The notes beneath the pieces were generated by a model, which worked only from the letters and a program-made list of their open reading frames with translations, was not told the origin of the DNA and did not search any database. Of a DNA stretch of 64,000 bases, positions 3,463 through 63,919 are shown one piece after another. The stretch spans positions 66,126 through 130,125 of the forward strand of contig CAWFNT010000003.1 of assembly GCA_963817255.1 (NCBI GenBank), in the 5' to 3' direction. A program made the position numbers and the translations under genes. Position 1 is the stretch's first letter. Each line of letters opens with the position of its first letter. The stretch comes from an uncultured Actinomycetes bacterium (GTDB lineage Bacteria; Actinomycetota; Coriobacteriia; Anaerosomatales; CAVRZR01).

Positions 3463-3909
3463 ATGCGTTGCCCGTTCTGCGGTCACGACGAAACGAAGGT
3501 CGTCGATTCGCGCGTCTCCGAGTCACAGGACGCGATACGTCGGCGACGCGAGTGCCTGTCGTGTCAGCAGCGCTTCACAACCTACGAGCGCCGCGAGGAA
3601 ATGCCGCTCATGGTCGTCAAGCGGGACGGGACGGCGGAGCCCTTCGATCGCGCGAAGCTGCTGCGGGGATTGATCGTTGCGACGGCAAAGCGCAATGTGG
3701 CGATCGAGCAGCTCGAGGCACTCATCGACGACATCGAGGGCGAACTTCACAACGCGTTCCGCTATGAGGTCTCTTCCAGGCAACTCGGCGACATGGTGCT
3801 CGCTCGACTCAAGGACCTCGACAAGGTCGCCTACGTCCGATTCGCGTCCGTATACAAGTCGTTCCAGGATCTCGATGAGTTCACTTCGGAACTCAAAGGT
3901 CTCAGCTAG
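3463..3909 (+). CDS. nrdR: Transcriptional repressor NrdR
   Basis: 148 aa with an N-terminal zinc ribbon (CPFCG...CLSCQ) followed by an ATP-cone. [17 protein letters not shown] is the typical NrdR start. Confidence 0.93.
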
Positions 3910-3911
3910 AC

Positions 3912-4367
3912 GTGATGTCAGCCGACCCACTCCGGATCACGCTGCCGATCAAGAGGATCGACCCTCAGCTTCCCCTTCCCACCTACGCACACGAAGGCGA
4001 CGCGGGCCTTGACCTTCGTTCGGCTGAGGACGTGAGCCTCCCGCCGCTCGGCAGGGCGCTCGTGAGCACTGGCGTCGCCATCGCCGTACCGGCGGGCTAC
4101 GCGGGATTCGTCCAGCCGCGTAGCGGGCTCGCACTCACGCAGGGCTTGAGCCTCGCGAACACCCCCGGGCTCATCGACAGCCACTATCGCGGCGAGGTCA
4201 AGGTCGTCCTCGTGAACCTCGATGCGGCGACGCCGATCGACATCCGACGAGGCGACAAGATCGCTCAACTCGTCGTCCAACCGGTTGCCGAGTGCACGCT
4301 GTCCGAAGTCACCGCACTAGACGTGACCGGCCGAGGGGAGGGCGGCTTTGGCAGCACCGGCATCTGA
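3912..4367 (+). CDS. dut: dUTP diphosphatase
   Basis: 151 aa with dUTPase motifs [20 protein letters not shown] and a C-terminal GFGSTG. Confidence 0.92.
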
Positions 4368-6659: not shown

Positions 6660-6701
6660 TCGTTTCCAGTGTCCTTTCAGTGACTCGCGCAGCGCCCACT
6701 C

Positions 6702-35610: not shown

Positions 35611-38115
35611 TTACGCTGCGGCGATAGCACTCACAACGATGCTCTTCCATTCGGCGGCCGCTGCGTCGGCACTCTCGGAGCTGTCCCCCTCCGAGTAGAT
35701 CGACACCAGAGGCTCGCTCGAGTGGGGCAACACGAGCACCCATCCACCGTCCAGGCTGACCCGCACGCCCTCGGTGTAGTTGGCATCCAGGCTCGCTGCC
35801 GCCTCGGTCACCGCGCGCATGACTGCGCCCTTCCGCTCGATCGGGCAGAAGACGGGCAACTCGCGCTTGTAGAACGGCGGCAGGTCCGCGACCACGTCGT
35901 CCATCGTGGTATCGAGACAGTCGAGCATCCTCACGATCATGCCGAGGGAGAGGATGCCGTCGTAGGCCGCGATGAAGTCCGCGAAGATGTAACCCCCGGT
36001 GGTCGACCCTGCGAAGCCCACTGCGTCCGAGAGTGCCAGTGCGGCCAGCGAGCGTCGCGAACGACCGGGCCTCATGACCTCGCGACCGTGGGCCTTCGCG
36101 ATGCGCTCGACGACCTGCGAGGCCTGCAGCGGCACGGCGATCGGGCGGCCGGAGGAGTCAGTCCTGCACCAGAGCTCGACCACCGCGTGCAACGCTGTGT
36201 CCCCGTCGAGTGCCCTGCCCTTCGGCGTCACGAGGCGAATCCGTTCGGCATCGGCATCGAAGCGCACGCCCAGATCGGCCTGGAACAGCTCGACGGAGTG
36301 CCTGAGGATCTCGAGGCCCGTGCCGCCCTCCTCCGTCATCTGGACGGTCGCCTCGGCGTCGTTGAACGCGTTCAAGCCGACGAGGTTGATGTGCCATCCG
36401 CTCGAGACCTGCGGGAGGACGATCGACGCCGAGCCTCCGGCAAGGTCGGCGACGACCTTGCGCCAGGTGTCCCGAAACTGCTGGCGCTGCATGGCTTCGG
36501 CGAGCCCGGCCGCGTAGTACTCCAGCGCGCGCGGTGGGTAGATGATGTCGCCCACCTCGTCGAAGAACGCGCGCCGAAACTCCCCGCGGAAGTAGAGTCG
36601 CTCGACCTTCTTCTCGTCGCCGGTGGCAATGTCGAGCCCGGTCTTGTCGAACAGGTGTATCTCGACCGACTGCGGGTCGGTGGGTGACGCGCAGACGTGG
36701 ATGCCCGCGACGCACCTCGTCTCTCGCGTGGTGAACCGGTTCACCGCCGAGGAAGCGACCCGCAAGTCGCGCACGTTGATGCCTGCCGAGTTGAGGCCCG
36801 CAACCATCGCGCGCTTGACCATCCTCGACGGGCGCGCCACGTCTCTGCTCACAATGACGTGGCCTCCCTTCGGCAGGGTGCTCCCGAACGCCTGAGCCAC
36901 CTTCAGAGCGAGCTCCGGAGTGATGTCCACGCCCACGAGCCCCGCGATGCCGTTGTCGCCGAAGAGCGCGTGCACGCCCGTGCTCTCCCAGATGAGCGAG
37001 GACGACACGATGGCGGCGGGCTCGATACGCTTGTAGGGGTAGACCTGGACGTCGGTGAGCACGTGCGCTCCCCTGCCCACCATGGTCTCGTCACCGATGA
37101 CCGCGCCGATGTCCACCTGCGCCCGCGCGCGCACGTCGACGCGACGGCAGAGCACCGCGCCGGAGACCTGCGCGCCCATGCCCACGAACGTGTCGCTCCA
37201 CAACACCGAATGACTCACCCGGGTGTCGGTTCCGATGACGCAGTTGTCGCCGATGACCGTGTATTCGCCGATGATGGCGCCTGCGCGTACGTTGACGTTC
37301 GAGCCGATGACGACGTGGTTGCCAAGCTTCGTATCCGGGTCGATCTTGGCTCCCTCGCCGATCCAGAGGTCCTCACGCGCTCGTACGCCGGGCACGTAGA
37401 CCATCGCGTCACCGTTGAGGATGTCGCGGTGGGCTTGGACGTAGGTCTCCCGACTGCCGATATCGCACCAGTAGCCGTCGAGCACGCATCCGTAGAGCGC
37501 GTGGCCCTGCTCCATGAGCAGCGGAAACAGATCCGCCGAGAAGTCGAAAGACACGTCCTTCGGCACCAGATCCAGCACCCACGGCTCGACGACGTAGATG
37601 CCGGTATTGATCGTGTCCGAGAAGACCTGGCCCCACGTGGGCTTCTCCAAGAAGCGCTCGATGCGGCCGTCCTCGGCGGTGATGACGACGCCATACTCGA
37701 GAGGGTCCGGAACGCTCTTGAGCGCGATGGTGACCGCGCCGCCCTTCTTGCGGTGGAACTCGATCACCTCGGTCAAGTCGAAGTCGGTGAGAGCGTCGCC
37801 CGAGATGACGAGGAAGGTCTCGCGCTCGAGCAGCGATTCCGCGTTCTTCACCGAACCGGCCGTCCCGAGAGGCGTCTCCTCGAGCGCGTAGGCGATCTTG
37901 ATCCCCCACTCTTCGCCGTCGCCGAAGTAGTCCTGAATGACCTTCGGCAAGAACGCGAGTGTCGCGACAACGCTGTCGATGCCGTGATGCCTGACGAGGC
38001 CGATGATGTGTTCCATGACCGGCTGGTTCACGATGGGCACCATCGGTTTTGGCCGAAGGCTCGTGAGAGGCCGAAGCCGGGTACCTTCACCACCCGCCAT
38101 GATCACAGCTTGCAT
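35611..38115 (-). CDS. Bifunctional sugar-1-phosphate nucleotidylyltransferase (with LbH domain) / phosphohexomutase
   Basis: The N-terminus [13 protein letters not shown] is NTP-transferase-like, followed by a hexapeptide-repeat region. The C-terminal ~450 aa are PGM/PMM-like. Confidence 0.8.
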
Positions 38116-40848: not shown

Positions 40849-43101
40849 CTATGGATGGGGGGTCTCCCAGAAGGCGTACACGTGGTCGTCGGGCGACGGG
40901 CCGAGTGGCTGGCCGGATGCGTCCGCCCAGATAGCGTGCACGAAGTCGTGGTGCTCGCAGTGCTTTGGCGGCTGGATGACGTCGACACCGTGACCGATCT
41001 CGATTGCCAGTTTGTAGACATTGGCGGCCGTTTGACCGTCGAAGTTGCTCCACATATGACCCTCGAAGGTATTGGAGTTGCCCACCATGATGCCGCTCGT
41101 CTGACAGACGACGTCACCCTTCCAAGTTCCTCCAAGAATGTAGAACCCGTGGGGGTTGGCCGTCGTGCCTGTCCACAGCGACTCGACGCGGATGTCGCTC
41201 GCGTCGCCGCCGTTGACGGTCACGTTGATCGTGCCGGTTACCCACCGGTTCTTGACGTAGATATGGATTGGCCCCGCGGTCACGTTCATGACCAGCTTGG
41301 TGCCATTGTTCAACGACAGGGCGTCGAGGAAGTAGAGACCCGAACCGTTAAACGTGAGCGTGTCTCCGCCACCACCGTTGATTGCCGCCCAGTACCCGGG
41401 AGTGAGGGTCGCGCTCTTGCCGTTTCCGGGCGGGAGCGGGTTGGGGGTAGGCGGACCAGCAGGGAACGGGGGCGGGGGCACGAACGTCGGCTTGAAGTAC
41501 GTGCCGAGCAGCCCGACCGCCGGCCAAGCGGGATTGTTGACGATGAAGTCTCCCGAGACCTGAGATGGGAACTGCCCGAACTTCGAGTCGGTGATCATGG
41601 AGCCCCAGATGTGGGTCTGACCCCCGCCGTTTGCGTAGATGTTGCCCACGCTGCCGACGTTGCCGTAGATCTGAGTCCCGGTCCCGAGCTTTACGGTCAG
41701 TCTCACGGTAGGAGCCAAGGTCGTGTACATGCCCTTGCCCCACACAAGAAACTCGCCGTTCGCGCAGGGGAAGAGGCTGAAGAAGCTCACCGGTCCGTAC
41801 TGGTAGACAAGCGTGGTGTTGCCCGGAATTGGATTGGGGAACGGGGTGGGATCGAACGCGGGCGTCGACCCGGCATTGAAGACCGAGTCGGTGAGTGTGA
41901 CGTTGTACGCTGGCTCACTGCCCACGTTCTGAACCACGAACGCAAACCAGATGGGGGTGCCGAAGGGCACGAACGGGCCGGGATAGGTGTCCGCGTCCAG
42001 GTACTCCTTCGTCGGATCGCTCGGGTCCTTGCCGTCGATCGAGATCATCTTCTTGACGATGATGACCGGCGGGGTGCCGGTGGGATCCCTGTGGGGGATT
42101 ATGCTGACGCCGACGTTGTCGGTGAGCGGATTGGCGCCAGTCCCACCACCAGGTACATTCACACCGTCAGAGAAGCTCTCGGGGGTCAGTGCGATGAGCC
42201 CGACCTCGCCGGGAGTGGCAGGGCTCTTCCCTGCCAGATCACCGACACCCAGGGTACCGCTCCAAGCCAGGTCGGTGATCTTGAGCGCCAGGGTCTCTGT
42301 CGCGCTGCTCGGGTCCGTAGGATCCGCATGGTTGTAGAACGACCCGGTCACGGCGACTTGGTCGCTGTTCGCACCCGTGACCGAGACATTCATCACGAGC
42401 CGATACCAGTGATCTCCCGATGTCGAACCGATCCGCTGCGTGAGCGAGAGACCCGGGTTGGTGTCTGCCTCGAAGAGTTGGTCAACGTCGATGGACGCGA
42501 GTTCCGTGCCGGTCCCCGCGATCTGGTAGACGAGGCTCAACCTGGCATGGTCGTGATTGTTGCCGCCACCGTGCTGGGCAAGCAGTGCCAGTCCGTCCAT
42601 GGCGTCTTCGTCATACATCGCGAGGATCCCGCCGGAGGAGTTGTGTCCGGGTGAGGCGAACAGCACGTCCGCCTTGAGCGTGACGCCCCCGGGCACGGTG
42701 AAGTCGACCAGACTCCGCGTGCCCGCGGTCTTGTCGGCGGGTGTCGTGTCATAGACCGTGATCCAGCTCTGGCCGGCTGCTGGAGGACCACCGCTCCTTT
42801 GACCGGTGAAGTTGATCGCGAAGTCGTCCCCGCCAACGACGGCGCGCGAAGGGGAACCGGCAGTCGCGATCAGGTTGGGGTTCGCGTTGATGTAGTCCTG
42901 CTCGTACGGGTCGGCCTTCCCCCACCAGATGACGTCCCGATACAGGCCGGTCGTCTGGTTGTTCACGGCGGTGTTCACCGTGTTGTCGTAGTCAGCCGGC
43001 AACAGCGCGTTCGCCGAAACGACCGCCGGACCAGCGACTATCGCGGCGATGGCCATCACCGCTATGCCGAACGTAAGTACCCTCCGCAATCTGTTCTTCA
43101 T
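40849..43101 (-). CDS. Large secreted protein, paralog A (750 aa): signal peptide, ConA/LamG-like N-domain, Ig-like middle domain, Gly/Asn/Thr-rich beta-helix-like region, His/Cys-rich tail
   Basis: ATG at 43101 preceded by GAGGAGG. Signal peptide MKNRLRRVLTFGIAVMAIAAIVAGPAVVSANA. The domain labels are pattern-based guesses only. Confidence 0.85.
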   Translation of the reverse strand: MKNRLRRVLTFGIAVMAIAAIVAGPAVVSANALLPADYDNTVNTAVNNQTTGLYRDVIWWGKADPYEQDYINANPNLIATAGSPSRAVVGGDDFAINFTGQRSGGPPAAGQSWITVYDTTPADKTAGTRSLVDFTVPGGVTLKADVLFASPGHNSSGGILAMYDEDAMDGLALLAQHGGGNNHDHARLSLVYQIAGTGTELASIDVDQLFEADTNPGLSLTQRIGSTSGDHWYRLVMNVSVTGANSDQVAVTGSFYNHADPTDPSSATETLALKITDLAWSGTLGVGDLAGKSPATPGEVGLIALTPESFSDGVNVPGGGTGANPLTDNVGVSIIPHRDPTGTPPVIIVKKMISIDGKDPSDPTKEYLDADTYPGPFVPFGTPIWFAFVVQNVGSEPAYNVTLTDSVFNAGSTPAFDPTPFPNPIPGNTTLVYQYGPVSFFSLFPCANGEFLVWGKGMYTTLAPTVRLTVKLGTGTQIYGNVGSVGNIYANGGGQTHIWGSMITDSKFGQFPSQVSGDFIVNNPAWPAVGLLGTYFKPTFVPPPPFPAGPPTPNPLPPGNGKSATLTPGYWAAINGGGGDTLTFNGSGLYFLDALSLNNGTKLVMNVTAGPIHIYVKNRWVTGTINVTVNGGDASDIRVESLWTGTTANPHGFYILGGTWKGDVVCQTSGIMVGNSNTFEGHMWSNFDGQTAANVYKLAIEIGHGVDVIQPPKHCEHHDFVHAIWADASGQPLGPSPDDHVYAFWETPHP

Positions 43102-43252
43102 GATTACCTCCTCTGTGCCTCCACGAGTGAAGATGTGGCGATACGACTCGCCCGTTGGTGTTTCATCGAATGGCATACCCCCAAACAGCGTGCCTCCCCA
43201 GTTGCCTTCCACGATTGCGACTGGATTCGCGTCTTCTGTCCCAAGAACGCGA

Positions 43253-43278
43253 AAACCGGCCAGTTACCAGGCCGGTTT
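43253..43278 (-). terminator. Hairpin aaaccggcc-N8-ggccggttt followed by TTTTCGCG on the minus strand, ~150 nt upstream of paralog A
   Basis: 9-bp stem plus a 4-U tract, so it is intrinsic-terminator-like. It is duplicated at 46088-46113. Confidence 0.55.
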
Positions 43279-43540
43279 GACTAGTAGCTCCCCGTCGCCA
43301 AAGTCACCATGTTGCGGCCACGGATCAACGCTTCCTGATTTCCGAGCTATGCAATTGAGTGACTGTTGCTATCCTCCCCCGAGCCCTGTGCCCTCAAACA
43401 CCCGGCAGCTGATGAGCGGCATGCGCCCGGGCGAAACAACCACTATCCACCCCAACATTCACCGTCCGAGTCTCAGTCCGAATCGACTCGCGGCTCCCCG
43501 TCACCATGATCGCCGCCGCGCGGCGACGGACTAGCGCTCG

Positions 43541-43680: not shown

Positions 43681-45927
43681 CTATGGATGCGGCGTCTCCC
43701 AGTAGGCGTACACGTGGTCGTCGGGCGACGGGCCAAGCGGCTGGCCCGCTGCGTCGGCCCAGATGGCGTGCACGTAGTCGTGGTGCTCGCAGTGCACCGG
43801 CGGCGGGATGACGTCGGCGCCGTGCTGGATGTCTATCGAGAGCGCGATTGCGCTCGCGGCAGGACCGTACTTGCCGTTCCAGTCGCTCCACATATAGCCC
43901 TCGAAGGTGCCCGAGTTCTGGCCGGTGCCGAACTTGATACCGCTCGTCCGGCAGATGACGGTGCCTGCCCAGTAGCCTCCCGCGTGCGAGAAGCCGTAGG
44001 GCTGGCTGCCGGTCCCGGTCCACTGCGACTCGAGAGAGATCATGCTGGCGTCGCCGCCGGTGAGGAAGCTCTTCGTGCCGCTTCCCCAGCTCGCCTGGTT
44101 GAGCACGTAGATCTTGACCGGGCCGTTCGTCAGGTCGAAGTAGAGCTTCCCGGCGTTGGCGAAGCTCAGGGACTTGAAGAAGTAGACCGCACCTCCGGGC
44201 GCGCCGGTGAAGTAGAGCTTCACCCCGCCGCCGCCCTTGATGTCGCCATAGGAGTTGCTCAGCCCGTTCCAGGCCAGCGGGGTGAAGCTGCCGTTGTTGC
44301 CGATGTTCGGCACGACGGGCTGGTCCACGGCCGGTATGGCAACGGAAGGCGGCAGCACCGGCGGCGTGGGCACGCCGGGCACGTTGAAGGCGCCCGCCAC
44401 GTGCGGCGGAGACTGTCCGATGAACTGAGACATCGTGGTGAGGTCGCCGTGGATCCAACCGGTGCCGTTGATATCCACGTCACCGACTGCTTCCACGTTG
44501 CCCCACACGTCCGACCCCTGTCCGATGTGGACGGCGGACTTCCACAGGCTCGATGTCGTCTGCGTGCCCCTGCCCCACACGAGCGTGTTGCTCGCGCAGG
44601 GGAAGAGGCTGAAGAAGCTCACGGGGCCGTACTCGTATACAAGCGTGGTATTGCCCGGGAAAGGATTGGGGAACGGGGTGGGATCGAACGGGGGCGTCGA
44701 TCCGGCATTGAAGACGGAGTCCGTCAGTGTGACGTTGTATGCCGGCTCATCGCCCAGGTTCTGGACCACGAACGCGAACCAGATGGGCGTGCCGAAGGGC
44801 ACGAACTCACCGGGATAGGTGTCCGCGTCCAGGTACTCCTTCGTCGGATCGCTCGGGTCCTTGCCGTCGATGGAGATCATCTTCTTGACGATGATCAACG
44901 GGTCGGTGCCGTGGGTTTCCGAGAACGGGATGATGCTGATGCCGACGTTGTCGGTGTGCGGATCGGCACCTGTCCAACCGTTCGCCACACCATCACTGAA
45001 GTTCTCAGGGGTCATCGCGATGAGCCCCACCTCGCCGGGAGTAGCGGGGCTCTTCCCTGCCAGGTCACCGACACCCAGAGTACCGCTCCAAGCCAGGTCG
45101 GTGATCTTGAGCGCCAGGGTCTCTGTCGCGCTGCTCGGGTCCGTGGGATCCGCATGGTTGTAGAACGACCCGGTCACGGCGACTTGGTCGTTGTTCGCAC
45201 CCGTGACCGAGACATTCATCACGAGCCGATACCAGTGATCTCCCGATGTCGAACCGATCCTCTGCGTGAGCGAGAGACCCGGGTTGGTGTCTGCCTCGAA
45301 GAGTTGGTCAACGTCGATGGACGCGAGTTCCGTGCCGGTCCCCGCGATCTGATAGACGAGGCTCAACCGGGCATGGTCGTGATTGTTGCCGCCGCCGTGC
45401 TGGGCAAGCAGTGCCAGGCCGTCCATGGCGTCTTCGTCATACATCGCGAGGATCCCGCCGGAGGAGTTGTGTCCGGGTGAGGCGAACAGCACGTCCGCCT
45501 TGAGCGTGACGCCCCCGGGCACGGTGAAGTCGACCAGACTCCGCGTGCCCGCGGTCTTGTCGGCGGGTGTCGTGTCATAGACCGTGATCCAGCTCTGGCC
45601 GGCTGCTGGAGGACCACCGCTCCTTTGCCCGGTGAAGTTGATCGCGAAGTCGTCCCCGCCAACGACGGCGCGCGAAGGGGAACCGGCAGTCGCGATCAGG
45701 TTGGGGTTCGCGTTGATGTAGTCCTGCTCGTACGGGTCGGCCTTCCCCCACCAGATGACGTCCCGATACAGGCCGGTCGTCTGGTTGTTCACGGCGGTGT
45801 TCACCGTGTTGTCGTAGTCAGCCGGCAACAGCGCGTTCGCCGAAACGACCGCCGGACCAGCGACTATCGCGGCGATGGCCATCACCGCTATGCCGAACGT
45901 AAGTACCCTCCGCAATCTGTTCTTCAT
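43681..45927 (-). CDS. Large secreted protein, paralog B (748 aa)
   Basis: ATG at 45927 preceded by AAGGGAGG. The N-terminal ~330 aa are almost identical to paralog A, the C-terminal half is diverged, and the last ~40 aa are conserved again. Confidence 0.85.
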   Translation of the reverse strand: MKNRLRRVLTFGIAVMAIAAIVAGPAVVSANALLPADYDNTVNTAVNNQTTGLYRDVIWWGKADPYEQDYINANPNLIATAGSPSRAVVGGDDFAINFTGQRSGGPPAAGQSWITVYDTTPADKTAGTRSLVDFTVPGGVTLKADVLFASPGHNSSGGILAMYDEDAMDGLALLAQHGGGNNHDHARLSLVYQIAGTGTELASIDVDQLFEADTNPGLSLTQRIGSTSGDHWYRLVMNVSVTGANNDQVAVTGSFYNHADPTDPSSATETLALKITDLAWSGTLGVGDLAGKSPATPGEVGLIAMTPENFSDGVANGWTGADPHTDNVGISIIPFSETHGTDPLIIVKKMISIDGKDPSDPTKEYLDADTYPGEFVPFGTPIWFAFVVQNLGDEPAYNVTLTDSVFNAGSTPPFDPTPFPNPFPGNTTLVYEYGPVSFFSLFPCASNTLVWGRGTQTTSSLWKSAVHIGQGSDVWGNVEAVGDVDINGTGWIHGDLTTMSQFIGQSPPHVAGAFNVPGVPTPPVLPPSVAIPAVDQPVVPNIGNNGSFTPLAWNGLSNSYGDIKGGGGVKLYFTGAPGGAVYFFKSLSFANAGKLYFDLTNGPVKIYVLNQASWGSGTKSFLTGGDASMISLESQWTGTGSQPYGFSHAGGYWAGTVICRTSGIKFGTGQNSGTFEGYMWSDWNGKYGPAASAIALSIDIQHGADVIPPPVHCEHHDYVHAIWADAAGQPLGPSPDDHVYAYWETPHP

Positions 45928-51131: not shown

Positions 51132-53303
51132 CTAGACGTCCGGGACTTCTGGCGGCGCGCTACGCATCGAGCTCCGCAACCGAAGCTCCACGAACGCGAG
51201 CGCCAGCCTGGGTTCGAACTGCGTCCCGGCGTTCGCCTCGATCTCGGCCAGCGCGCGCTCCGTGTCGAGTGCCTCGGGGGCCGAGATGCCCGAGGTCATG
51301 GCGTCGTACGCGTCGCACACGGCGAGGATCCTGGCCTCCAGTGGTATTTGCTCGCCGGCGAGGCCGTCGGGGTAGCCCGCGCCGTCCCAACGCTCGTGAT
51401 GGGCGCGCACCCACGGCAGGATGAATCCGAGCTCGGTCGAACGCAGGATCCGCTCCCCCATCTCCACGTGCTCGCGCAACCGCGCCTTGTCGTTCTCGTC
51501 CAGATCGCCGTGTTTCCAGAGAAGCTCGTCGGGCAATGCGAGCTTGCCGATGTCGTGAACCAGCCCTGCGGTCTCGATCGCCGACGCTTGTTCGGCGCTC
51601 GCTCCCAGCTCTGCCGCAAGTTCGCGAGCCAGCGAACCGACCCTCCGGGAGTGTTCTCGGGACGCCGGGTCGCGCGCGTCGACGGCGGCGGCGAGCGCCC
51701 GTACGGTGGCGCGATAGGCCTCCTTGCGTGCCAGGTCGAGTCGTTCCTCAGGCAGCTGCGGACGCACGACATCCGGTCCGTAGACCACGACAGAGCCGCG
51801 CCGTTGGATCTTCGCGGTCTGCAGGGCCGAGAAGGCTTCACGGATCATAGAGGCAGCGTCTCGAGACGACGTAGACGCCGTCACGCCCGCCGACACCGTG
51901 ATCGGCAGGTCGCCGACCAACACCCGATGCTCGACGTGCCTGGCGAGCTCGTCGGCGAACCGTGCGCCGGATTCCGAGGACTCCCCGGGCGCGATGACGA
52001 CGAATTCGTCGCTGCCTGCCCGGTAGAGATCGCATCGTTGACCACATTGCTCGCGGAGCACGCCCGCTACGCCGCGAAGAACGTCATCCCCCGACCGATG
52101 TCCGAACAACTCGTTCACGCGCGTCAAGTCGTCGATGTCCAGCGCGATGAGCGCGACATCGCCGCCCCACCGTGTGGCCTCGGCAATGCCCTTCTCGAGA
52201 TCCCGTTTGAGAACGCGCTCGTCCTTGAGCCCCGTCACCGAGTCCGTGGACGAGGCGATTCGGCCCCGTTGCAGCTCCAACGCTGAGAGCCAGCTGCGTG
52301 TCAGCAACAGGGCCGCGAGGATGATGTCGGCACCAAGGATCACCGCTGTCCGCGCCGACCCCGCGTAGTGGCGCGCGCGAGCCCCGAACAGCGCCATCGC
52401 GGACACGAGGACGAGGGGGTACACGATGTGCAGCCACATCGGAGGATTGTCGAGGCGCGGTCTCGATCCGAGGGCGTCCGAGTCCAGGTCGGCGGTGATC
52501 CTGTAGATCGATGCCAGGAAGAACAGGTACGGGCCGAGACCGAGGCCCAGTTCGGTGAGCGCCATCAGCGACGAGGGGCCGGCGTCCCTGAGCCCGAAGA
52601 TCCACATCGGCATGGCTGCGAGGCCAATGGCGCTCAACGTTAGCCCGGCCCCGGCGTACTTCTGCCAAGTCCTCCAGCGGGTGACTTTCGCTCCAAAGAC
52701 GACGCCGAACGTGCCGAGTACGATCACCAAGCCGAGCACCGGGTACGCGGCACCGACCGCCGCCGCCCCGATTCCGAAACCCCCTGCCAGCAGAACAGCC
52801 GGCGCAACGACGAACTCGAACACGACGATGTAGACCGCGACCGCACCGGCAGCTGCAGCCGCGAAGAAGCGGAACCGCGAGACGGCTGGCTCTGATCCGA
52901 AGTTGGCAGTGGACACGATCATCGCGAGCAGGGCCAGCACCGCGCCGACGTGCAGAAGCTCGAAGGCCGAGGGCACTGTTGGCCCGCGCGCATCGATGGC
53001 CAAGAGGTAGTACGAGTAGTAGAGCTCGGCCGCAAGCGACAGTCCGACGGCAGCCGCGAGCAGCGCCCAGAATCGACGTTCGTAGCCACGCGCACGTGTG
53101 AATGCCACCAGACATCCGCCACAGGCAAGGAAGAGGGGTGCGAGGTACAGGGCTTCGCCGAACACCGTCGGCCCGTCGGTTGGCGATCCGGTCAACTGAA
53201 GCCATACCCGGACGAGAACGAGCGCTGCCAGTCCTCCCAGGACGGAGCCTCGGACGATCCGAGTCCCCAACAGGGCGCGCGGCTCGCCCTTCACGACAAC
53301 CAC
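51132..53303 (-). CDS. Polytopic membrane sensor - GGDEF(variant GSDEF) - HD-GYP protein
   Basis: An N-terminal region of ~330 aa carries multiple TM helices. The GGDEF domain has RAGSDEF at the active-site position. The HD-GYP domain shows HDIGK and HHERWDGAGYPDG. Confidence 0.85.
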   Translation of the reverse strand: MVVVKGEPRALLGTRIVRGSVLGGLAALVLVRVWLQLTGSPTDGPTVFGEALYLAPLFLACGGCLVAFTRARGYERRFWALLAAAVGLSLAAELYYSYYLLAIDARGPTVPSAFELLHVGAVLALLAMIVSTANFGSEPAVSRFRFFAAAAAGAVAVYIVVFEFVVAPAVLLAGGFGIGAAAVGAAYPVLGLVIVLGTFGVVFGAKVTRWRTWQKYAGAGLTLSAIGLAAMPMWIFGLRDAGPSSLMALTELGLGLGPYLFFLASIYRITADLDSDALGSRPRLDNPPMWLHIVYPLVLVSAMALFGARARHYAGSARTAVILGADIILAALLLTRSWLSALELQRGRIASSTDSVTGLKDERVLKRDLEKGIAEATRWGGDVALIALDIDDLTRVNELFGHRSGDDVLRGVAGVLREQCGQRCDLYRAGSDEFVVIAPGESSESGARFADELARHVEHRVLVGDLPITVSAGVTASTSSRDAASMIREAFSALQTAKIQRRGSVVVYGPDVVRPQLPEERLDLARKEAYRATVRALAAAVDARDPASREHSRRVGSLARELAAELGASAEQASAIETAGLVHDIGKLALPDELLWKHGDLDENDKARLREHVEMGERILRSTELGFILPWVRAHHERWDGAGYPDGLAGEQIPLEARILAVCDAYDAMTSGISAPEALDTERALAEIEANAGTQFEPRLALAFVELRLRSSMRSAPPEVPDV

Positions 53304-55456
53304 GCCTCAGACCAGCCAAGGGCATGGTCGGTACTCACGATCTCTATGAGTATCTCCGCCATGTCCGGATCGAGGCGCCTGCCCATGCTTTGATCGAGTT
53401 CCTGGATGGCGGCCGGCCGGGAGAGCGGACCTCGCTCCGGAGTCCCGGACACCATTTGGTCGTACATGTCGCAGGCCGCGATGATTCGCGCCTCCATCGG
53501 GATAGCGGGCCCGGCGATTCCGTCGGGATATCCCGAGCCGTCCCACGACTCGTGATGCGCGCGCACCCACGGGGCCATGTAGGCGAGATCGGTCCCGGCC
53601 AGGATGCGAGCGCCCAACTCGGCGTGTTCCATCAGCACCGCACGCTCGGCTGGAGAAAGTCGGGACCGCTTGCGCAGAACGGAGTCAGGGACCGCCACCT
53701 TGCCGACGTCGTGAAGAAGGGCCGCCATTTGCACGTCTTGAGCCCTCTCAGTGCCAAGCCCCACGGCCTCCGCGAGAAGGAAGGCGAGCGCCGCAACCTG
53801 ACGCGAGTGATAAGCGGTCGCGCTGTCGCGAGCATCCGTGGCAGTCGCGAGAGCGCGCACGATGTCGCTTCGGGACTTCCGCGCTATCCCGCGGGCACGC
53901 TCATCCACGTCGAGCGCGCGCACGACCGTCTCGTTGTAAGCCTCGACACGGCGCTTGCCTTGGCACTTCGCCCAATAGAGCGCAGCATCGGCTGCTGCGA
54001 GCAACTCCTCGCTACTCATGGCATCGGTCGGCCATGAAGACACGCCCGCAGAGAGGTGGATCGGCTCCGGGGTGGACTCAATGCTCTCCGCGGCGGACAG
54101 GAGCCGCTGAACTCGGGCCGGCGCCTTTGTCTCACCGACACCATCGAGGATGACTGCGAACTCATCGCCTCCGAGGCGCGCGACGGAGTCGCCGTCGCCC
54201 GCCGCCTCTCGAAGCGCGTGCGCGATGGCCACCAAGGCCGCGTCCCCTTCGTCCCGGCCGTGCACGACGTTGAAACGCGCGAAATCGTCGACGTCGACGA
54301 CTGCAAGCGACATCTCGCTGGCGTACGTCTGGGCCCTCGCAATGCCGTCACGGAGATCCTCTTCGAACGTCACGCGGTTGAGGACCGCCGTCAGCGGGTC
54401 GGACGCAGCGCTCGCCCTGAGCCCCATCTTCTCGGCGTCCGCGAGCGCGGTTCTCAAGACGATCGCGAGTGTCGTGACGGCCAAGCCCAAGAAGTAGAAC
54501 ACACGATCGAACGAACCGGGTTCCGACCCGTAGAGAGCAAACGCGAGCAGAGGGACCGTCGCCAGCGCGAATGTCGTGATGGCGACTGACGTCGCGTTGG
54601 CCGCCGACTTCGGCTTCGGTTCGACCGCCCTCGCCCACGGCGTCGGATCCGTCGTCAGCCAGTAGATGCTCGCCATGAAGAGGACGAAGTACCCGGCCAT
54701 GTAGCCGAGGTTTATCAGGAGTTCGGATGCGTCGTCACCCGTCGATGCAGTTCCCACGTACCAAACGGGCCAGAGGAAGACGACCAGTGCGTATCCCGAT
54801 ACGGCGGCCATTCCGAGCACCTGCCACGTCACCCAGCGCACGCCGCGATGTCTCATGAGGCCCCAGGCACAACCCACCAGCAGCGCGCCGCCAACGGTTG
54901 AGTAGCACGCCCACACGAAGGCCTCGAGCGCCGAGTGGCCCGTTGCGGCCGCGAGTGGGCCTGTGAACCATCGATAGAGCACCGTGTTCGCGGCGACGAG
55001 GAACGTCACCGCACCGCAGACCAGCTGAAGCACACCGCTGGGTGTCGCGAAACGGAGCCGCGACATGAAGACCAGGAGTGCGAAGAACGACAGTGCCGCA
55101 ACGAGGTTCAGAGCGTCGAACACAGAGGGGGTAGACGGCCCGGCGGGGCTCACCAGGAGCTGATAGGCCGCGTAGTAGGCCTCGCTCACAAACAGACACG
55201 CCGCAGCGAGCGCGAACCCGCCCCACATGACCCTGGCTCGGGTTCCTCGATCAGACGCGCTCCACGCGGCGAGCGACCCGAGCACCGGAAGCATCGTCGG
55301 CACCATGAACGCGAGCACTTGTACGGCGACGGACGCCTGTGAATCGGCTGCCCAGGCCCAGACGTAGACCAGCGAGCTGATCGGCAGGATCGCCCATGCG
55401 ATGAGTCGCGCACGATGCTCGTGACCACGGAGTCGCTGTCTCAGGTTCAGAGCCAT
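53291..55456 (-). CDS. Polytopic membrane sensor - GGDEF - HD-GYP protein (paralog)
   Basis: Same architecture with canonical RLGGDEF, and HD-GYP motifs HDVGK and HHESWDGSGYPDG. It overlaps the downstream paralog by 13 nt. Confidence 0.85.
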   Translation of the reverse strand: MALNLRQRLRGHEHRARLIAWAILPISSLVYVWAWAADSQASVAVQVLAFMVPTMLPVLGSLAAWSASDRGTRARVMWGGFALAAACLFVSEAYYAAYQLLVSPAGPSTPSVFDALNLVAALSFFALLVFMSRLRFATPSGVLQLVCGAVTFLVAANTVLYRWFTGPLAAATGHSALEAFVWACYSTVGGALLVGCAWGLMRHRGVRWVTWQVLGMAAVSGYALVVFLWPVWYVGTASTGDDASELLINLGYMAGYFVLFMASIYWLTTDPTPWARAVEPKPKSAANATSVAITTFALATVPLLAFALYGSEPGSFDRVFYFLGLAVTTLAIVLRTALADAEKMGLRASAASDPLTAVLNRVTFEEDLRDGIARAQTYASEMSLAVVDVDDFARFNVVHGRDEGDAALVAIAHALREAAGDGDSVARLGGDEFAVILDGVGETKAPARVQRLLSAAESIESTPEPIHLSAGVSSWPTDAMSSEELLAAADAALYWAKCQGKRRVEAYNETVVRALDVDERARGIARKSRSDIVRALATATDARDSATAYHSRQVAALAFLLAEAVGLGTERAQDVQMAALLHDVGKVAVPDSVLRKRSRLSPAERAVLMEHAELGARILAGTDLAYMAPWVRAHHESWDGSGYPDGIAGPAIPMEARIIAACDMYDQMVSGTPERGPLSRPAAIQELDQSMGRRLDPDMAEILIEIVSTDHALGWSEAWLS

Positions 55457-58111: not shown

Positions 58112-58873
58112 CTAGAGCTCCTGCCGTCTGAACACCCAGATCGCAGCCAGGACGAGCAGGGGAATCGCGACAGCTGCGGCCACAAGCGGTCCTGTGGCCT
58201 GAGCGGACTGACTTTGGAGGATCCGAGACGGCGCGCCGATGAGCCCCACCGGCGTGTTCCGAACAGCGGGCCCCCAGATGGTGAGGATGCCGAGTGCCGC
58301 GAACACACCCACGCCCGCACCGACAGCCGCCAGCGTGGAGAAAGCTGCCGAGAGCAGCACCATCGCCGCCAGCAGCACGAGTGCGAACACCAGCCAGACG
58401 GCGGTCGCCGAGACCAGTGGCTCCGGGGGCGCCTCGCCGAAGATTGCAGCGGTGACCGCCCAGGTCACCACGGTGTTGGCAACGATCGCGAGGACGAGCA
58501 GCCCCGCATGCACGAGGTACTTCGCCACCACGAACCCGCCGCGCGAGACGGGCTTGGTGAGCACGAGTGCGGCCGTCCCGCTCGCCCGCTCGCCCGCAAT
58601 GATCCCCGCGCTCACTCCGATGAGGAGGAACACGCCGATCTGCCCGAGGTTCTTGATCCACTGGGTGTAGGCGTCCAGGTACGTCGGCTTCGGGATCGTG
58701 ATGGAGATGCCTTGCTGCGACGCACCCAGCGACTGGATCAGTTGCGGCGTAAACTTCGCGAGGATCGGCCCGGTCACCGCGAAGAACAGCAGGACTCCCG
58801 GAAGCACCCAGATCCGCCACGTCCTCAGGATCTCGGTTACTTCCTTGCCCGCGAACCGCGCGAAGCCCCTCAT
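58112..58873 (-). CDS. ABC-2-type transporter permease (fused in frame to the upstream ATPase in this assembly)
   Basis: MRGFARFAGKEVTEILRTWRIW... with six TM segments. The ATG at 58873 would overlap the ATPase's native stop (ATGA). Confidence 0.75.
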   Translation of the reverse strand: MRGFARFAGKEVTEILRTWRIWVLPGVLLFFAVTGPILAKFTPQLIQSLGASQQGISITIPKPTYLDAYTQWIKNLGQIGVFLLIGVSAGIIAGERASGTAALVLTKPVSRGGFVVAKYLVHAGLLVLAIVANTVVTWAVTAAIFGEAPPEPLVSATAVWLVFALVLLAAMVLLSAAFSTLAAVGAGVGVFAALGILTIWGPAVRNTPVGLIGAPSRILQSQSAQATGPLVAAAVAIPLLVLAAIWVFRRQEL

Positions 58874-59863
58874 CTCGAGACCTCGCTCACGAGGTCCACG
58901 AACACTTGCTTCGAGGGTGACCTCTCCCCCCTCGAACCGTCTGAGCGCAAGGCCGCGCTCGGCAACCATCGCGGGTACCTCGCGTTGCGCCGTGTCCACA
59001 TCCGATACCGACAGCTCCACAACACCGTTCTCGAGCTCGACGCTCGTCGCCCATTCACGTTGCCCGAGCGCATCGGCGAACTCCTGTACTGCGCGGTCGA
59101 CCTCGACGACGAGGCGATGCGCGGAATACCTGGCCTTCAGCTCGTCGATCGGCGCCTGCGCGACGATGCGACCGCGGTCGAGGATCGCGACCGTGTCGCA
59201 CACGCGCTCGACGTCGGCAAGGATGTGCGTCGAGAAGAACACGGTGGTGCGACCGCCGAGCGACGCGATCATCTCCAGGACTTCCTTGCGCCCAATCGGA
59301 TCCAAGGCGCTCGTGGGTTCGTCGAGCATGAGCAGCTTCGGGGCGTTGACGAGCGCCTGGGCAACGCCGAGGCGCTGTTTCATGCCTCGCGAGTAGCCGC
59401 CGACGCGGGTCTTCACGCCGGCAAGCCCCGCGAGGTCGAGCAGCGCCTTCGTGCGCTCCTCGAGCACGCGGTCGTCCAGTCCGAACAAGCCGCCTGCGAA
59501 GCGCAGGAACTCCTCGGCAGTCATCCAGTCGTAGAACCCCGGGACGTCGGGCAAGAAGCCGACGAGCGAGCGGGCCGCCGTGGTCGTGCTGGTCACGTCG
59601 TTTCCGAAGATGCGCGCCGAGCCGCTCGTGGGCCGCGCGAGGCCCGTGAGGATGCGTAGCGCGGTCGTCTTGCCGGCCCCGTTCGGGCCGAGGAAGCCGA
59701 ACACCGAACCGACCGGGACAGCGAGGTCGACGCCGTCGAGCGCTCGGACCTCGCGGTACTGTTTGACCAGGCCGCGTGCCTCGAGCGCGAGAGGACGCTC
59801 GTCGGGGCCCTTCGTCGCCGAAGCGGCCTGGACCCGCTCTTCCGATACGGCGAGCGAGATCAT
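58870..59863 (-). pseudogene. ABC transporter ATP-binding protein; a +1 indel near 58909 replaces the native C-terminus and fuses it to the permease frame
   Basis: Walker A GPNGAGKTT, signature YSRGMKQR, Walker B LLMLDEP. After ...GGEVTLE the conserved ending QVFVDLVSEVSR-stop is in the adjacent frame (ORF 58870-59073). Confidence 0.75.
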
Positions 59864-60189: not shown

Positions 60190-60363
60190 GGAACCACGCC
60201 TGCCTCTCGTGTCGGGAGCGAGTACCCGGGGCGCACCGCCCGTCGCGTAGCGATGGACCGATGCAATCGTTCGACCGCGGCCGCTGTCGTCCTGCAGGAT
60301 ACCGCTCTGCGCTGAGAGATGCTGCCAATTGAAACGATCACCCTGCGGGGCAATAACGCTCGT

Positions 60364-61485
60364 CTATCGGACGTGGCGCCGTGCGACGCGCTGAAAGAGC
60401 GACGAGTACTCGGGTGCGAGCCGATCGAACGTGAACGCCTCGGCGATATCACGCGCGGCACCAGGGCGCGGCCGCTCGATCACCAGGGCCCTCAACCGCG
60501 CAACCAGCTCGTCGTGCGTGCGATATCGCATTTCTGCGGGGTAGAGCTCGGTATACGCGAGGCGGTCGGGAACGAGCAGCGTGCAGCCTGCGTACGCCGC
60601 TTCGATCATCGCAATGCCGAAGAACTCGTTCTCAGCCGTCGAGACCGAGACGTCGCACGTGGCGAGCAGATGCGCGTAGTCCGCGCGCGACGCGGGTTCG
60701 TCGCAGTGGACCAGCCGCCCTCTCAGCAGTGCCTCCGCGCGTTCAAACACCTCGGGACGATCCGAGAAGGCCTGTCCGGCCACCGCGACCTCGAAATCGA
60801 GTCCCTCGGCAGCCAGGACGCCGACTGCCTCGAAGAAGGCGTCGGGGTTCTTGTCGTGCTCCCAACGGTGAGGCCACACGATCCGGGCGCGCGGCCCACG
60901 TCGAGCGTCCTCGACGCCCGGCCCTCCAAGCACCTCGTCAAAGGGCGCCGGGTCGAACGGCGGGTGCACGACGAGCGACTTCTCGGCGATCGACTCGGCG
61001 ACGTGTCTGGGCTGATGATCCGGGAACTGCCCGAGGAACGCAGGGATCCCGGCCAGGAACTCACGCATGTTCCACTCGGTGTTGAAGGCGCAGCACTGTG
61101 CCGAGAGCGCGCTCGTGATGTTGGTGAGCGGGAACTGGAAGTCCCACTCGGCTGTGTGTCTGTTGGGGTAGACGAGCTGGTTCTCGTGGAAGTAGACGAT
61201 CGCGGGGATCGCGGCGACAGTCGGCCCCGCCAACCCTCTGAATTCTGCGAGGTTCAGGAAGGTGGAGGCGAAGACGAGGTCGAAACGCTCGCCTGCGTCG
61301 GCGCGGGCGCGAACCTCCGCGGCCATGGTGATCGCCGCCCCCCGCATACGCCACTTCCACTTTCGCGCCGGGAGCGTCACAAGCGTCCACTCCGCGTCCA
61401 CATGGGATGCCAAGCCATCCAACACCGCCCGGTGCGAGCCGCCGTAGTAGGGCTCGAGCGCGAGGATCCTCAGGCGCTCAGGCAT
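60364..61485 (-). CDS. DUF3524-type GT4 glycosyltransferase, homologue of eukaryotic GTDC1 (tRNA-queuosine alpha-mannosyltransferase family)
   Basis: 373 aa with motifs EPYYGGSH, LPARKWKWRMRG, YFHENQLVYP, PDHQPRHV, IVWPHRWEHDKNPDAFF and STAENEFFGIAMIEAAYAGC. From memory, these match the GTDC1 family blocks. Confidence 0.75.
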   Translation of the reverse strand: MPERLRILALEPYYGGSHRAVLDGLASHVDAEWTLVTLPARKWKWRMRGAAITMAAEVRARADAGERFDLVFASTFLNLAEFRGLAGPTVAAIPAIVYFHENQLVYPNRHTAEWDFQFPLTNITSALSAQCCAFNTEWNMREFLAGIPAFLGQFPDHQPRHVAESIAEKSLVVHPPFDPAPFDEVLGGPGVEDARRGPRARIVWPHRWEHDKNPDAFFEAVGVLAAEGLDFEVAVAGQAFSDRPEVFERAEALLRGRLVHCDEPASRADYAHLLATCDVSVSTAENEFFGIAMIEAAYAGCTLLVPDRLAYTELYPAEMRYRTHDELVARLRALVIERPRPGAARDIAEAFTFDRLAPEYSSLFQRVARRHVR

Positions 61486-62712
61486 CGGTCTGTTGCTCGG
61501 GGGTCGGTGCGGCCGGCCAAGCCTTGGGCGCCCGGTACGAGGGGCACGCGAAGTCGACCCAGGACAGCGCGCTCATGGCATCGGCGACCATCCGTGCGAG
61601 GTCGAGCTCGCTCTCCCCCGCGTGGACCTGGTCGACCGTCGCATGCGTCTCGGGCGTGCGCGGCATGAAGAGCGTGCAGCAGTCGTCATGCTCCTGGGTG
61701 GAGATCTCGTACGTACCGATGGCACGCGCCTCGCCGATGATCTCGAGCTTGTCGTTGCCGACGAGCGGGCGAAGCACCGGGAGCGTGGCGGCATCGTCGA
61801 CCGCTGCAATGTTGTCGAGCGTCTGCGACGCGACCTGCCCCAGTGACTCGCCGGTCACAAGCGCCTTCGCTCGTTCGACGCTCGCGATCGCTTCGGCGAC
61901 GCGCACCATCAGACGGCGGTAGAGCAGCACTCTGAGGTCCGGCGGTGCATGGAGCGAGATCTCTTTCTGGAGGTCGCCGAATGGCACGACGTAGATCCGC
62001 CCGAGCCCCCCGGTGCTCTCGAGCGACCTGCCGATCTCTTCGACGAGCCGCTCTGAGAGGTCGTTGGTCTGTGGACGTCCGGAGAAGTGAACGCCGACGA
62101 TGACGGCTCCTCGGCGGATCATCCGCCACGCGGCGACCGGAGAGTCTATGCCGGCCGAGAGCAGCCCGACGATCTTTCCGGCGGTGCCCACGGGCAGCCC
62201 GCCGATGCCCCGAACCTTGCGGGAGTATACGTAGGTGTCGCCTTGGACGACCTCGATGTGACACGTGACGTCCGGTTTCGAGAGGTCGACCTGCTTGCCC
62301 GTCGTGTTGTCGAGGACGTGCTGCCCGACCTCGCGGTTGATCTCCATGCTCGAGCGCGCGTAGTCGGTGTTCGAGCGGCGTGCCTCCACCTTGAACGTCC
62401 GGTAGGGCTCGGCCTCCTCGAGCGTCAGAAGCGCGGCCCTGTCGATGTCGTGGTCGAGACGCGAAGTCTTGAGCGCTGGCGAGGCGTTGCTGATCCCCGG
62501 GAATCGCGCACGACACGGTCCAGCACCCGCTCGGTCGACGCCGGCTCCAGCACCGGCACGGCGAGGCGGCTCGCGATCCGCTCGACAGGCGCGACGGGCA
62601 GACCGGTCAGCGCGGCGTCGAGATTGTCTTTGAGACGTCGCTCGAAGACGGAGCGGTTGCGCCCCTTGAGGCCGATCTCGTGGTAGTGGATGAGGATGGC
62701 GCGCTCGAACAT
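61478..62712 (-). pseudogene. thiI: tRNA 4-thiouridine synthase ThiI with an apparent 1-nt deletion near 62503
   Basis: The N-terminus (MFERAILIHYHEIGLKGRNR...VLDRVVR) is in ORF 62425-62712. The continuation FPGISNASPALK...THUMP...PP-loop (LLSAGIDSPVAAW) is in the frame of ORF 61478-62389. Confidence 0.85.
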
Positions 62713-62722
62713 GCGCGCCGGC

Positions 62723-62980
62723 TTACTTGAAGCTTTCCTTGACCCGCTCGTAGCTCACGTCGCCCTCGGCGATCTCGTCGAGCGCGAGGGTGAGCGGCTT
62801 GGTGCTCGTGAGCTGCGCCACCTGGCTGGTGGCCATGGCGGCCATGGAAAGCAGGGCCTGATCGCGCATCCCGTGGACCATGTCGTTGATCTGGCGGGCG
62901 CGCCGGGCCGAAACGATGCAGAGGGTGTACTTGGAATCGACCTTCGAGAGAAGCTCGTCGATCTCGGGCTTGATGACCAT
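62723..62980 (-). CDS. rpoZ: DNA-directed RNA polymerase subunit omega
   Basis: 85 aa. IDELLSKVDSKYTLCIVSARRARQIN is the typical RpoZ core. Confidence 0.9.
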   Translation of the reverse strand: MVIKPEIDELLSKVDSKYTLCIVSARRARQINDMVHGMRDQALLSMAAMATSQVAQLTSTKPLTLALDEIAEGDVSYERVKESFK

Positions 62981-62994
62981 GTAGCTACGCTTCC

Positions 62995-63588
62995 TTAGAG
63001 TTCGCCTGATGCGGCGTCGGATTCGATGATGCTCACGAGCTCGTCTTCTGCTCGGCGCACGTCGTCGTTTTGTACCACATGATCGTAGGTACCCGCAACG
63101 AGCAGCTCTCGTTCGGCGGTCCGAAGTCGCTCCTCTACCTCGCCCTTCGTCTCGCTGCCCCTGCCCTCCAGGCGCCGGCGAAGCTCCTCGAGCGACGGGG
63201 CCGTGACGAAGATGCGCACCGCCGAAGGCATCGCCTCCTTGACCTGAGCAGCCCCTTGCGGATCGATCTCCAAGACGACGTCTATGCCGTGTTCCAGCTT
63301 GGATACGACCTGGTCGCGAAGGGTTCCGTAGCAGTTGCCGTGGACCTCAGCCCACTCGAGGAGACCGCCATCACGCTTGAGAGCTTCGAACCGCTCGGGT
63401 CCGACGAAGAAGTACTCTCGCCCTTCCACCTCTCCGGGTCGCGGCCCCCTGGTGGTCGCGGAGATCGAGAGCCACAAGCGTGGAACCCTCGCCACCAATC
63501 GCTTGACGAGGGTTCCCTTACCCGCGCCGGACGGACCGGAGACGATGAACAGCCTTCCGGTTCGCTCGTGCGCGGGCGTCTGCTTCAG
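62995..63588 (-). CDS. gmk: Guanylate kinase (start codon unresolved)
   Basis: The P-loop GRLFIVSGPSGAGKGT lies upstream of the first ATG/GTG/TTG (63498). The frame is open up to the mihF stop. The proposed start is CTG at 63588, preceded by GAAGGA, and is tentative. Confidence 0.8.
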   Translation of the reverse strand: MKQTPAHERTGRLFIVSGPSGAGKGTLVKRLVARVPRLWLSISATTRGPRPGEVEGREYFFVGPERFEALKRDGGLLEWAEVHGNCYGTLRDQVVSKLEHGIDVVLEIDPQGAAQVKEAMPSAVRIFVTAPSLEELRRRLEGRGSETKGEVEERLRTAERELLVAGTYDHVVQNDDVRRAEDELVSIIESDAASGEL

Positions 63589-63610
63589 ATACAGGTCCTT
63601 CGGCCGACGA

Positions 63611-63919
63611 TCAGCCGAGACGCTTCATGAGCATCTCGCGCTGACGGGCGCCCAGACCCTGAACTCGACGGCTCTCGGAGATCTCCAGCTCGGCCATGAT
63701 CTTGGCGGCCTTCGCCTTGCCGTACCCGGGAAGGCTCTCGAGCAGGGTGGAGACCTTCATGCGGGCGACGATCGGATCGTCTGCCTTCTTCATGACCTCC
63801 GCGAAAGACATCTTGCCGGCCTTGATATCGGCCCTGAGCGCTGCGCGCTTCTGACGGGCTTCCGCGGCCTTCTTGAGCGCGGCCTGGCGATCCGCATCCG
63901 AAAGGTTGGGCAGTGCCAT
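63611..63919 (-). CDS. mihF: Actinobacterial integration host factor mIHF
   Basis: 102 aa. MALPNLSDADRQAALKKAAEARQKRAAL...LESLPGYGKAKAAKIMAEL is typical of mIHF, and the gene sits upstream of gmk-rpoZ. Confidence 0.88.
   Translation of the reverse strand: MALPNLSDADRQAALKKAAEARQKRAALRADIKAGKMSFAEVMKKADDPIVARMKVSTLLESLPGYGKAKAAKIMAELEISESRRVQGLGARQREMLMKRLG

Follow-up and report, generated by a model that had tools for sequence, protein, structure and literature searches.

A QTMAN/GTDC1-family glycosyltransferase gene overlapping thiI in an actinobacterial housekeeping operon: a candidate for bacterial queuosine glycosylation

The transferase gene and its operon

The window analyzed here is a stretch of 64,000 nucleotides (nt) from an uncultured soil or sediment actinobacterium of the Coriobacteriia (assembly GCA_963817255.1, contig CAWFNT010000003.1, positions 66,126 to 130,125). 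On its reverse strand, an open reading frame (ORF) with an ATG start (60364..61485) encodes a glycosyltransferase of 373 amino acids (aa), hereafter the transferase, which the ORF, Pfam profiles, homology searches and a structural model assign to the GT-B-fold QTMAN/GTDC1 family. Directly upstream lies thiI (61478..62712, reverse strand), identified by Pfam and NCBIfam models as a tRNA uracil-4 sulfurtransferase gene lacking the rhodanese domain. It is preceded by rpoZ, encoding the RNA polymerase omega subunit of 85 aa (62723..62980, reverse strand, Pfam RNA_pol_Rpb6), by the guanylate kinase gene gmk (62995..63560, reverse strand, Pfam Guanylate_kin) and by a gene for a mihF-like integration host factor of 102 aa (63611..63919, reverse strand, Pfam H2TH_5), which is the first gene of the block. 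Together, mihF, gmk, rpoZ, thiI and the transferase gene form a tight block on one strand, spanning 60364-63919.

The start of the transferase gene and the stop of thiI share an 8-nt overlap, ATGCCTGA (61478..61485, reverse strand). The ATG of the transferase gene occupies positions 61485-61483 and the TGA of thiI positions 61480-61478, so that the junction reads cag acc gat gcc TGA in the frame of thiI and ATG cct gag in the frame of the transferase. No GGAGG-like motif is present in the 20 nt before this ATG, which fits termination-reinitiation after thiI as the probable way in which the transferase is translated. A weak terminator-like hairpin (60337..60354, reverse strand) located 10 nt past the transferase stop is not above chance, and scans for promoters and terminators gave no signal over chance (three terminator hairpins found versus 2.1 expected). 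The initial annotation had reported the 373-aa frame with a set of motif blocks, the 8-nt overlap and a mihF-gmk-rpoZ-thiI operon. The frame, every quoted block, the overlap, and the order, strand and tight spacing of the operon genes were all recovered. However, that annotation had missed a frameshift that splits thiI, described below.

Predicted domains, fold and motifs of the transferase

The N-terminal domain of the transferase (residues 6-176) matches the Pfam model PF12038 (QTMAN_N, formerly DUF3524) with 201 bits (E=1.5e-59, cut-off 25) over model positions 1-167 of 168. For comparison, this model gives 231 bits with a vertebrate QTMAN. The C-terminal domain is of the GT4 type and matches Glycos_transf_1 at residues 201-307 with 34.3 bits against a cut-off of 26.4. 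Searches of the transferase against NCBIfam gave no model, and a sequence search of the Protein Data Bank (PDB) gave no relative. Conserved blocks are distributed over both domains: LEPYYGGSH (10-18), LPARKWKWRMR (38-48), YFHENQLVYP (98-107) and PDHQP (155-159) lie in the N-terminal domain, and IVWPHRWEHDKNPDAFF (202-218) and STAENEFFGIAMIEAAYAGC (282-301) in the C-terminal domain. The latter two contain R207, K212 and E287-x7-E295, which we take to be the GT4 donor-binding signature. The ORF is of full length and every catalytic residue is present.

The AlphaFold2 model of the transferase has a mean pLDDT (predicted local distance difference test) of 95.3 and a predicted template modeling score (pTM) of 0.93. 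Foldseek comparisons with this model showed that the best PDB neighbors are all retaining GT-B enzymes of the GT4/GT5 type, namely MshA, GlgM, BshA, PimA and glycogen synthase, at a Foldseek probability of 1.00, with template modeling (TM) scores of 0.65-0.76 and sequence identities of 11-16%. No hydrophobic segment was found in the transferase (maximum Kyte-Doolittle value, KD19, of 1.58). Because the PF12038 score, the matches to animal proteins given below, the conserved motifs, the GT-B model and the lack of a hydrophobic segment all agree, membership of the full-length transferase in the QTMAN/GTDC1 family is established. By the same comparisons, the predicted product is a soluble, cytoplasmic, retaining GT4-type GT-B enzyme that falls into one orthologous family with animal QTMAN.

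Family distribution and conservation

A phmmer search against 1.84 billion representative sequences returned 3124 relatives of the transferase from many phyla, 923 of them at E<1e-30 (clusters at 50% identity), and the family gene is carried by thousands of bacteria. The top 150 matches include named GTDC1/QTMAN proteins of Polypterus, Holothuria, Elysia, Anneissia and Saccostrea, with E-values of about 1e-62 to 1e-71 and identities of about 38-44%, the same range as that of bacterial members from other phyla. The Polypterus protein XP_039613302 matches with E=5e-69 and 39% identity. BLASTP aligned this protein in two segments (1e-41 and 1e-38) that span both domains, the two aligned halves being separated by an animal-specific stretch. 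The resemblance to GTDC1 and DUF3524 proposed initially on motif blocks is thus borne out by profile and pairwise searches.

The carrier lineages include Coriobacteriia-like Actinomycetota, Planctomycetota, Desulfobacterota, Bacteroidota/Rhodothermia, Myxococcota, Verrucomicrobiota, Ignavibacteria, Nitrospirota and Spirochaetota; Chloroflexota, TA06 and Zixibacteria are further represented among the 70 loci outside the clade of the window described below. Cultured carriers include Salinibacter ruber, Longibacter salinarum and Desulfobulbus rhabdoformis. Many strains of S. ruber have the family gene (for example WP_118830500.1, on chromosomes of 3.5 Mb). Neither plasmid copies nor a phage copy of full length were found for the family gene, and the idea that phage or plasmid copies might hint at glycosylation of 7-deazaguanine in DNA was rejected, as there were none of substance.

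Conservation was analyzed in an alignment of 56 sequences, five of them animal. Fourteen columns are invariant (H100, E101, N102, Q103, Y106, N135, R207, D211, K212, G237, G290, E295, P306 and Y311) and another 29 are at least 90% conserved, giving 43 in total; E287 is conserved at 95%. The five animal sequences retain all 43 positions except for R46K in one, Y270F in two and F289Y in one. The motifs EPYxGGSH, KWKWR, YFHENQLxYP, FNS and PD on the acceptor side are invariant or nearly so from bacteria through animals. The transferase shares 37.6% identity with the animal sequences in the N-terminal domain and 42.1% in the donor domain, and the corresponding values with the bacterial sequences are 41.4% and 42.0%. 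In GT-B enzymes, acceptor specificity usually sits in the N-terminal domain.

A neighbor-joining tree that includes the GTDC1 proteins, an analysis that the initial annotation had proposed, places the animals as one clade among bacterial clades. The distance of the animal clade is about that between bacterial phyla, and the tree contains no paralogous subfamilies. The equal conservation of the N-terminal and donor domains, together with the single animal clade at interphylum distance, suggests that the family as a whole has kept one substrate pair. This quantitative argument, that the acceptor domain appears to be under the same constraint in bacteria and in animals, is new. The homology itself is not new, because bacterial members already carry database labels: Pfam has renamed DUF3524 as QTMAN_N, and RefSeq and UniProt name the bacterial proteins 'tRNA-queuosine alpha-mannosyltransferase domain-containing protein'. 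The family has thus not gone unnoticed in the databases, but we found no paper on a bacterial homologue.

Extent of the thiI linkage

The genomic contexts were compared in 80 loci from a scan of one genome per species, supplemented with two close relatives obtained by exact-protein look-up. In the neighbor-joining tree, 10 of the 80 loci, from metagenome-assembled genomes (MAGs) labeled Coriobacteriia or Actinomycetota and with identities of 60-69%, group with the window as one clade. Among the 12 informative loci of this clade, the window included, thiI lies upstream of the transferase gene in 11. The junction measures between -17 and +7 nt in 9 of the 12, and five of these are the classic 4-nt overlap ATGA or GTGA; equivalent junctions in relatives measure -4, -17, +6 and +7 nt. 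Two loci are less compact, one with a PIN-domain gene (9552-9983 of locus L004) inserted between thiI and the transferase gene and the other with a gap of 522 nt (L010). The complete order mihF-gmk-rpoZ-thiI-transferase, with an intact thiI, is found in GCA_942493275.1, a chromosome of 2.5 Mb, and in a contig of 1.44 Mb. The adjacency to thiI is a real, conserved operon arrangement at the level of the clade, in which the transferase gene is housekeeping-like. Its stop/start-overlapped placement behind thiI, within a housekeeping operon and conserved in one actinobacterial clade, is described here for the first time.

Outside the clade, thiI was found near the transferase gene at none of 70 loci (35-48% identity), for 54 of which the available upstream sequence exceeds 1.5 kb. 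The linkage, whose conservation in relatives the initial annotation had proposed to check, holds within the clade and nowhere else among these loci. The 118 immediate neighbors at the 70 loci fall into 128 Pfam families, none of which is common to more than four loci. Glycosyltransferases account for 2 of the 118 neighbors, and wzx, wzy and polyprenyl genes are not enriched. A weak Dus match (PF01207) on a homologue of 437 aa (P0378) was discarded and gives no sign of a neighboring tRNA-modification gene. At the Salinibacteraceae loci the family gene is isolated. A conserved ORF of 79-81 aa with no Pfam match lies immediately upstream of it on the same strand (9656-9901 in L083, 9685-9924 in L084 and 1615-1854 in L086).

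Frameshift in thiI and nearby anomalies

The thiI gene of the window is split into two frames, 62425..62712 with the ferredoxin-like domain and 61478..62389 with the THUMP and PP-loop domains. All three domains (PF22025, PF02926 and PF02568) are found over the two frames, and the NCBIfam model TIGR00342 matches with 298 bits. Comparison with relatives placed the frameshift at 62495..62505 (reverse strand), where two extra G are present, bracketed in cgc[g]attcccggg[g]atc. The upstream frame ends in '...VLDRVVRDSRGS...*', and its conserved continuation, first 'IPG' and then 'ISNASPALK...', is distributed over the two remaining frames. At this site L002, the closest relative with an intact gene, reads 'VVRIPGIS'. 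Removal of the two G (62505 and one of 62495-62498) yields a ThiI of 410 aa that is 79.5% identical to that of L002. Outside the 2-nt lesion, the repaired gene is a clean frame of 410 codons with a G+C content at third codon positions (GC3) of about 0.86, and one of the extra G sits in a G-run.

Two further anomalies lie nearby. An ABC ATPase and an ABC-2 permease are fused by a frameshift into an ORF of 583 aa (58112-59863, reverse strand) with the junction near 58900. The true C-terminus of the ATPase, 'VFVDLVSEVSR*', is found in another frame, and relatives have two genes overlapping by ATGA. In gmk, the listed ORF starts at 63498 and the P-loop GPSGAGKGT is encoded in frame upstream of it (63498-63560) with no ATG, GTG or TTG ahead of it, so that either the start codon is non-canonical or a base is wrong. 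Because several indels occur within 4.5 kb, the break in thiI most likely stems from an indel in the assembly and is not biological; a very recent pseudogene is still conceivable.

Other features of the window

A c-di-GMP-II riboswitch (57.2 bits, gathering cut-off 53.5) is located at 43261-43344 (reverse strand) upstream of an ORF of 787 aa (40849-43212, reverse strand) that has no Pfam or NCBIfam match. The neighboring ORF of 748 aa (43681-45927, reverse strand) is likewise unmatched. Two tandem paralogous proteins of about 720 aa with GGDEF and HD-GYP (HD_5) domains are encoded at 51132-55456 (reverse strand). The riboswitch and the GGDEF/HD-GYP pair, as predicted from sequence, indicate active cyclic di-GMP signaling.

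A protein of 834 aa encoded at 35611-38115 (reverse strand) appears to be a fusion of a sugar-1-phosphate nucleotidyltransferase with a phosphoglucomutase/phosphomannomutase. Its best NCBIfam match is mannose-1-phosphate guanylyltransferase with 269 bits, below the cut-off, and the fusion is a possible source of GDP-mannose.

Proposed function and alternative explanations

By analogy with the animal enzyme, the most likely function of the transferase is hexosylation of queuosine-34 (Q34) in tRNA, an assignment for which we see about an even chance. The enzyme would transfer a hexose from a sugar nucleotide, by analogy GDP-mannose, to the cyclopentenediol of Q34 in a tRNA with a GUN anticodon, by analogy tRNA-Asp, and the product would be a bacterial glycosyl-queuosine. 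As the last cistron of the mihF-gmk-rpoZ-thiI operon, the transferase would be made constitutively beside another tRNA-modifying enzyme. In the literature found, GDP-mannose and Q34 of tRNA-Asp form the only substrate pair assigned to the family (Zhao et al. 2023, Cell 186:5517, via PMC11755703; bioRxiv 10.64898/2026.03.22.713446). A Q-glycosyltransferase is favored because the acceptor side is conserved from bacteria to animals, the gene is chromosomal, its product is predicted to be cytoplasmic and the locus lies outside glycan clusters.

Several observations weigh against this assignment. The thiI adjacency is limited to one Coriobacteriia-like clade, within which one locus (L008, 9342-11089) has the transferase gene directly after rpoZ and no thiI. 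This makes the adjacency a weak argument for an RNA substrate, and the initial claim that it points to RNA glycosylation was overstated. The transferase has an isoelectric point (pI) of 5.7, compared with a family median of 6.3, and lends no support to RNA binding; the animal enzymes are similar, and pI was set aside as an uninformative hint of RNA binding. Residue 303 is Leu (codon 60577-60579) at a position that is Pro in 69 of 71 clade members and in 93% of the family, a single-base difference from Pro in the motif GCxPLxP. The Pfam profile search used to annotate the proteins of the 64-kb window revealed no tgt or que genes. Probing of the window and 82 locus flanks (1.1 Mb) with approximate E. 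coli Tgt, QueA, QueC, QueD and QueE probes, which serve as leads only, gave a single QueC. In addition, 88.6% of species have tgt and the Actinobacteria hold most of the tgt-less species (PMC10570037). In a published COG census, the carrier species S. ruber (strain M8) has the entries tgt=0, queA=1 and 'No-Q' (PMC10570037 Data S4). In the literature found, mannosyl- and galactosyl-queuosine count as animal modifications, and glutamyl-queuosine is the one such derivative known in bacteria; sugar-modified queuosine is described for vertebrates and glutamyl-queuosine only for bacteria (PMC10690763), and no literature was found with biochemistry of any bacterial DUF3524/QTMAN member.

Some of these points carry qualifications of their own. 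The single QueC (PF06508, 6e-73) lies in a Desulfobulbia MAG (L024) at 3610-4338 on the reverse strand, 2.3 kb from the transferase gene (6669-7745, forward strand), from which it is divergent and separated by a hybrid sensor kinase gene. It is the sole que gene near the 83 family members, and one QueC per 1.1 Mb is no more than chance. The COG census lists 11 cultured Coriobacteriia, every one of them with tgt, which is also scored present in the listed Planctomycetes, Desulfobulbaceae, Ignavibacterium and Phycisphaera, which are kin of carrier lineages (PMC10570037 Data S4). The presence of queA without tgt in S. ruber looks like an annotation gap. Should the score prove right, a strict dependence of the family on queuosine would be excluded.

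The strongest alternative is that the transferase shares the family and the chemistry of animal QTMAN and acts on a different bacterial acceptor, specificity for Q34 in tRNA being an animal acquisition. Candidate acceptors would be a 7-deazaguanine or queuosine precursor in free form, a different modified nucleoside or, as for MshA and BshA, a small metabolite of the cytoplasm. The closest solved folds indeed belong to enzymes with small-molecule substrates (MshA, BshA, GlgM, trehalose-6-phosphate synthases and sucrose-phosphate synthase). The lack of linkage to tgt or que genes across the 83 loci, the tgt-negative score of S. ruber, the acidic character of the transferase and the lack of any report of glycosyl-queuosine in bacteria in the literature found would also suit such an acceptor. 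However, the near-invariance of the N-terminal motifs from bacteria to animals and the equal identity of the two domains would be unexpected if the acceptors differed. The animals also branch as one clade at interphylum distance, and the small-molecule GT4 enzymes share no more than 11-16% identity with the transferase. Overall, a different acceptor is possible but rather unlikely.

A further explanation concerns this copy of the locus, which may be decaying, with thiI a real pseudogene and the P303L transferase perhaps non-functional here. The frameshift in thiI, the fusion of the ABC ATPase and permease frames, the lack of a canonical start ahead of the P-loop of gmk and the replacement of a Pro that nearly all clade members keep would be expected of such a locus. 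However, the otherwise clean frame of thiI, its similarity to the intact relative, its GC3 and the position of one extra base in a G-run speak for an intact gene, and residual assembly errors explain better than decay why conserved genes carry several indels over 4.5 kb. The transferase itself is of full length and keeps all its catalytic residues, and decay of the locus is regarded as improbable. Least probable of all, and very doubtful, is an ordinary envelope or exopolysaccharide glycosyltransferase whose likeness to GTDC1 reflects shared GT4 ancestry: many members are labeled 'glycosyltransferase involved in cell wall biosynthesis' by JGI and the C-terminal domain matches the generic Glycos_transf_1, but the family-specific N-terminal model is matched at 201 bits, a membrane segment is absent, glycosyltransferases and wzx, wzy or polyprenyl genes are not enriched among the neighbors, and in the clade the gene resides in a housekeeping operon.

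Returning to Q34 glycosylation, a broader proposal is made tentatively, at somewhat below even confidence. Bacteria of many phyla may glycosylate Q34 through a QTMAN orthologue, which would make this an old, overlooked bacterial tRNA modification rather than an animal invention, with which the animal enzyme shares ancestry and which is tied to thiI in one actinobacterial clade. Should queuosine be the substrate of the bacterial members, an entire class of tRNA glycosylation in bacteria would have escaped notice, and the evolutionary origin of the animal enzyme would become clearer. If S. ruber is truly without tgt, the family needs another acceptor, which would be equally informative on GTDC1-like recognition.

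Comparison with known systems

Animal QTMAN (GTDC1) resembles the transferase in the combination of a PF12038 N-terminal domain with a GT4-type C-terminal domain, in being soluble, in an identity of 38-44% across both domains and in the motifs including R207, K212 and E287-x7-E295. The animal proteins differ by about 90-120 extra residues, which correspond to a gap in the bacterial sequences and lie between the two halves aligned by BLASTP. The activity of the animal enzyme has been demonstrated, whereas the bacterial role is predicted. Queuine is salvaged by animals, whereas bacteria either produce precursors or salvage them, and the gene of the window is, unlike its animal counterpart, an operon cistron behind thiI.

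The named bacterial DUF3524 proteins WP_118830500.1 (S. ruber) and WP_205225817.1 (D. rhabdoformis) share the family and the length of the transferase, with identities of 35-46%, and are likewise encoded by single-copy, stand-alone genes for cytoplasmic proteins. However, they have no conserved neighbors; only the Coriobacteriia-like clade places the gene after thiI in the mihF-gmk-rpoZ operon. MshA (3c4q), BshA (5d00 and 6d9t), PimA (2gej) and GlgM (6tvp) share the fold (TM 0.65-0.76) and the donor-side R/K and EX7E residues. They differ in overall sequence (11-16% identity), and the N-terminal motifs are specific to the QTMAN family.

GluQRS (YadB) is the known bacterial enzyme that puts glutamate on Q34 of tRNA-Asp (PMC10690763, PMC3542578). 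The transferase would share with it the target nucleoside and the cyclopentenediol hydroxyls, and GluQRS provides the example of a non-essential addition to queuosine (PMC10690763, PMC3542578). The two enzymes nevertheless have unrelated folds and would differ in chemistry: GluQRS has the fold of an aminoacyl-tRNA synthetase paralogue and forms an ester, whereas the GT-B transferase would form a glycoside.

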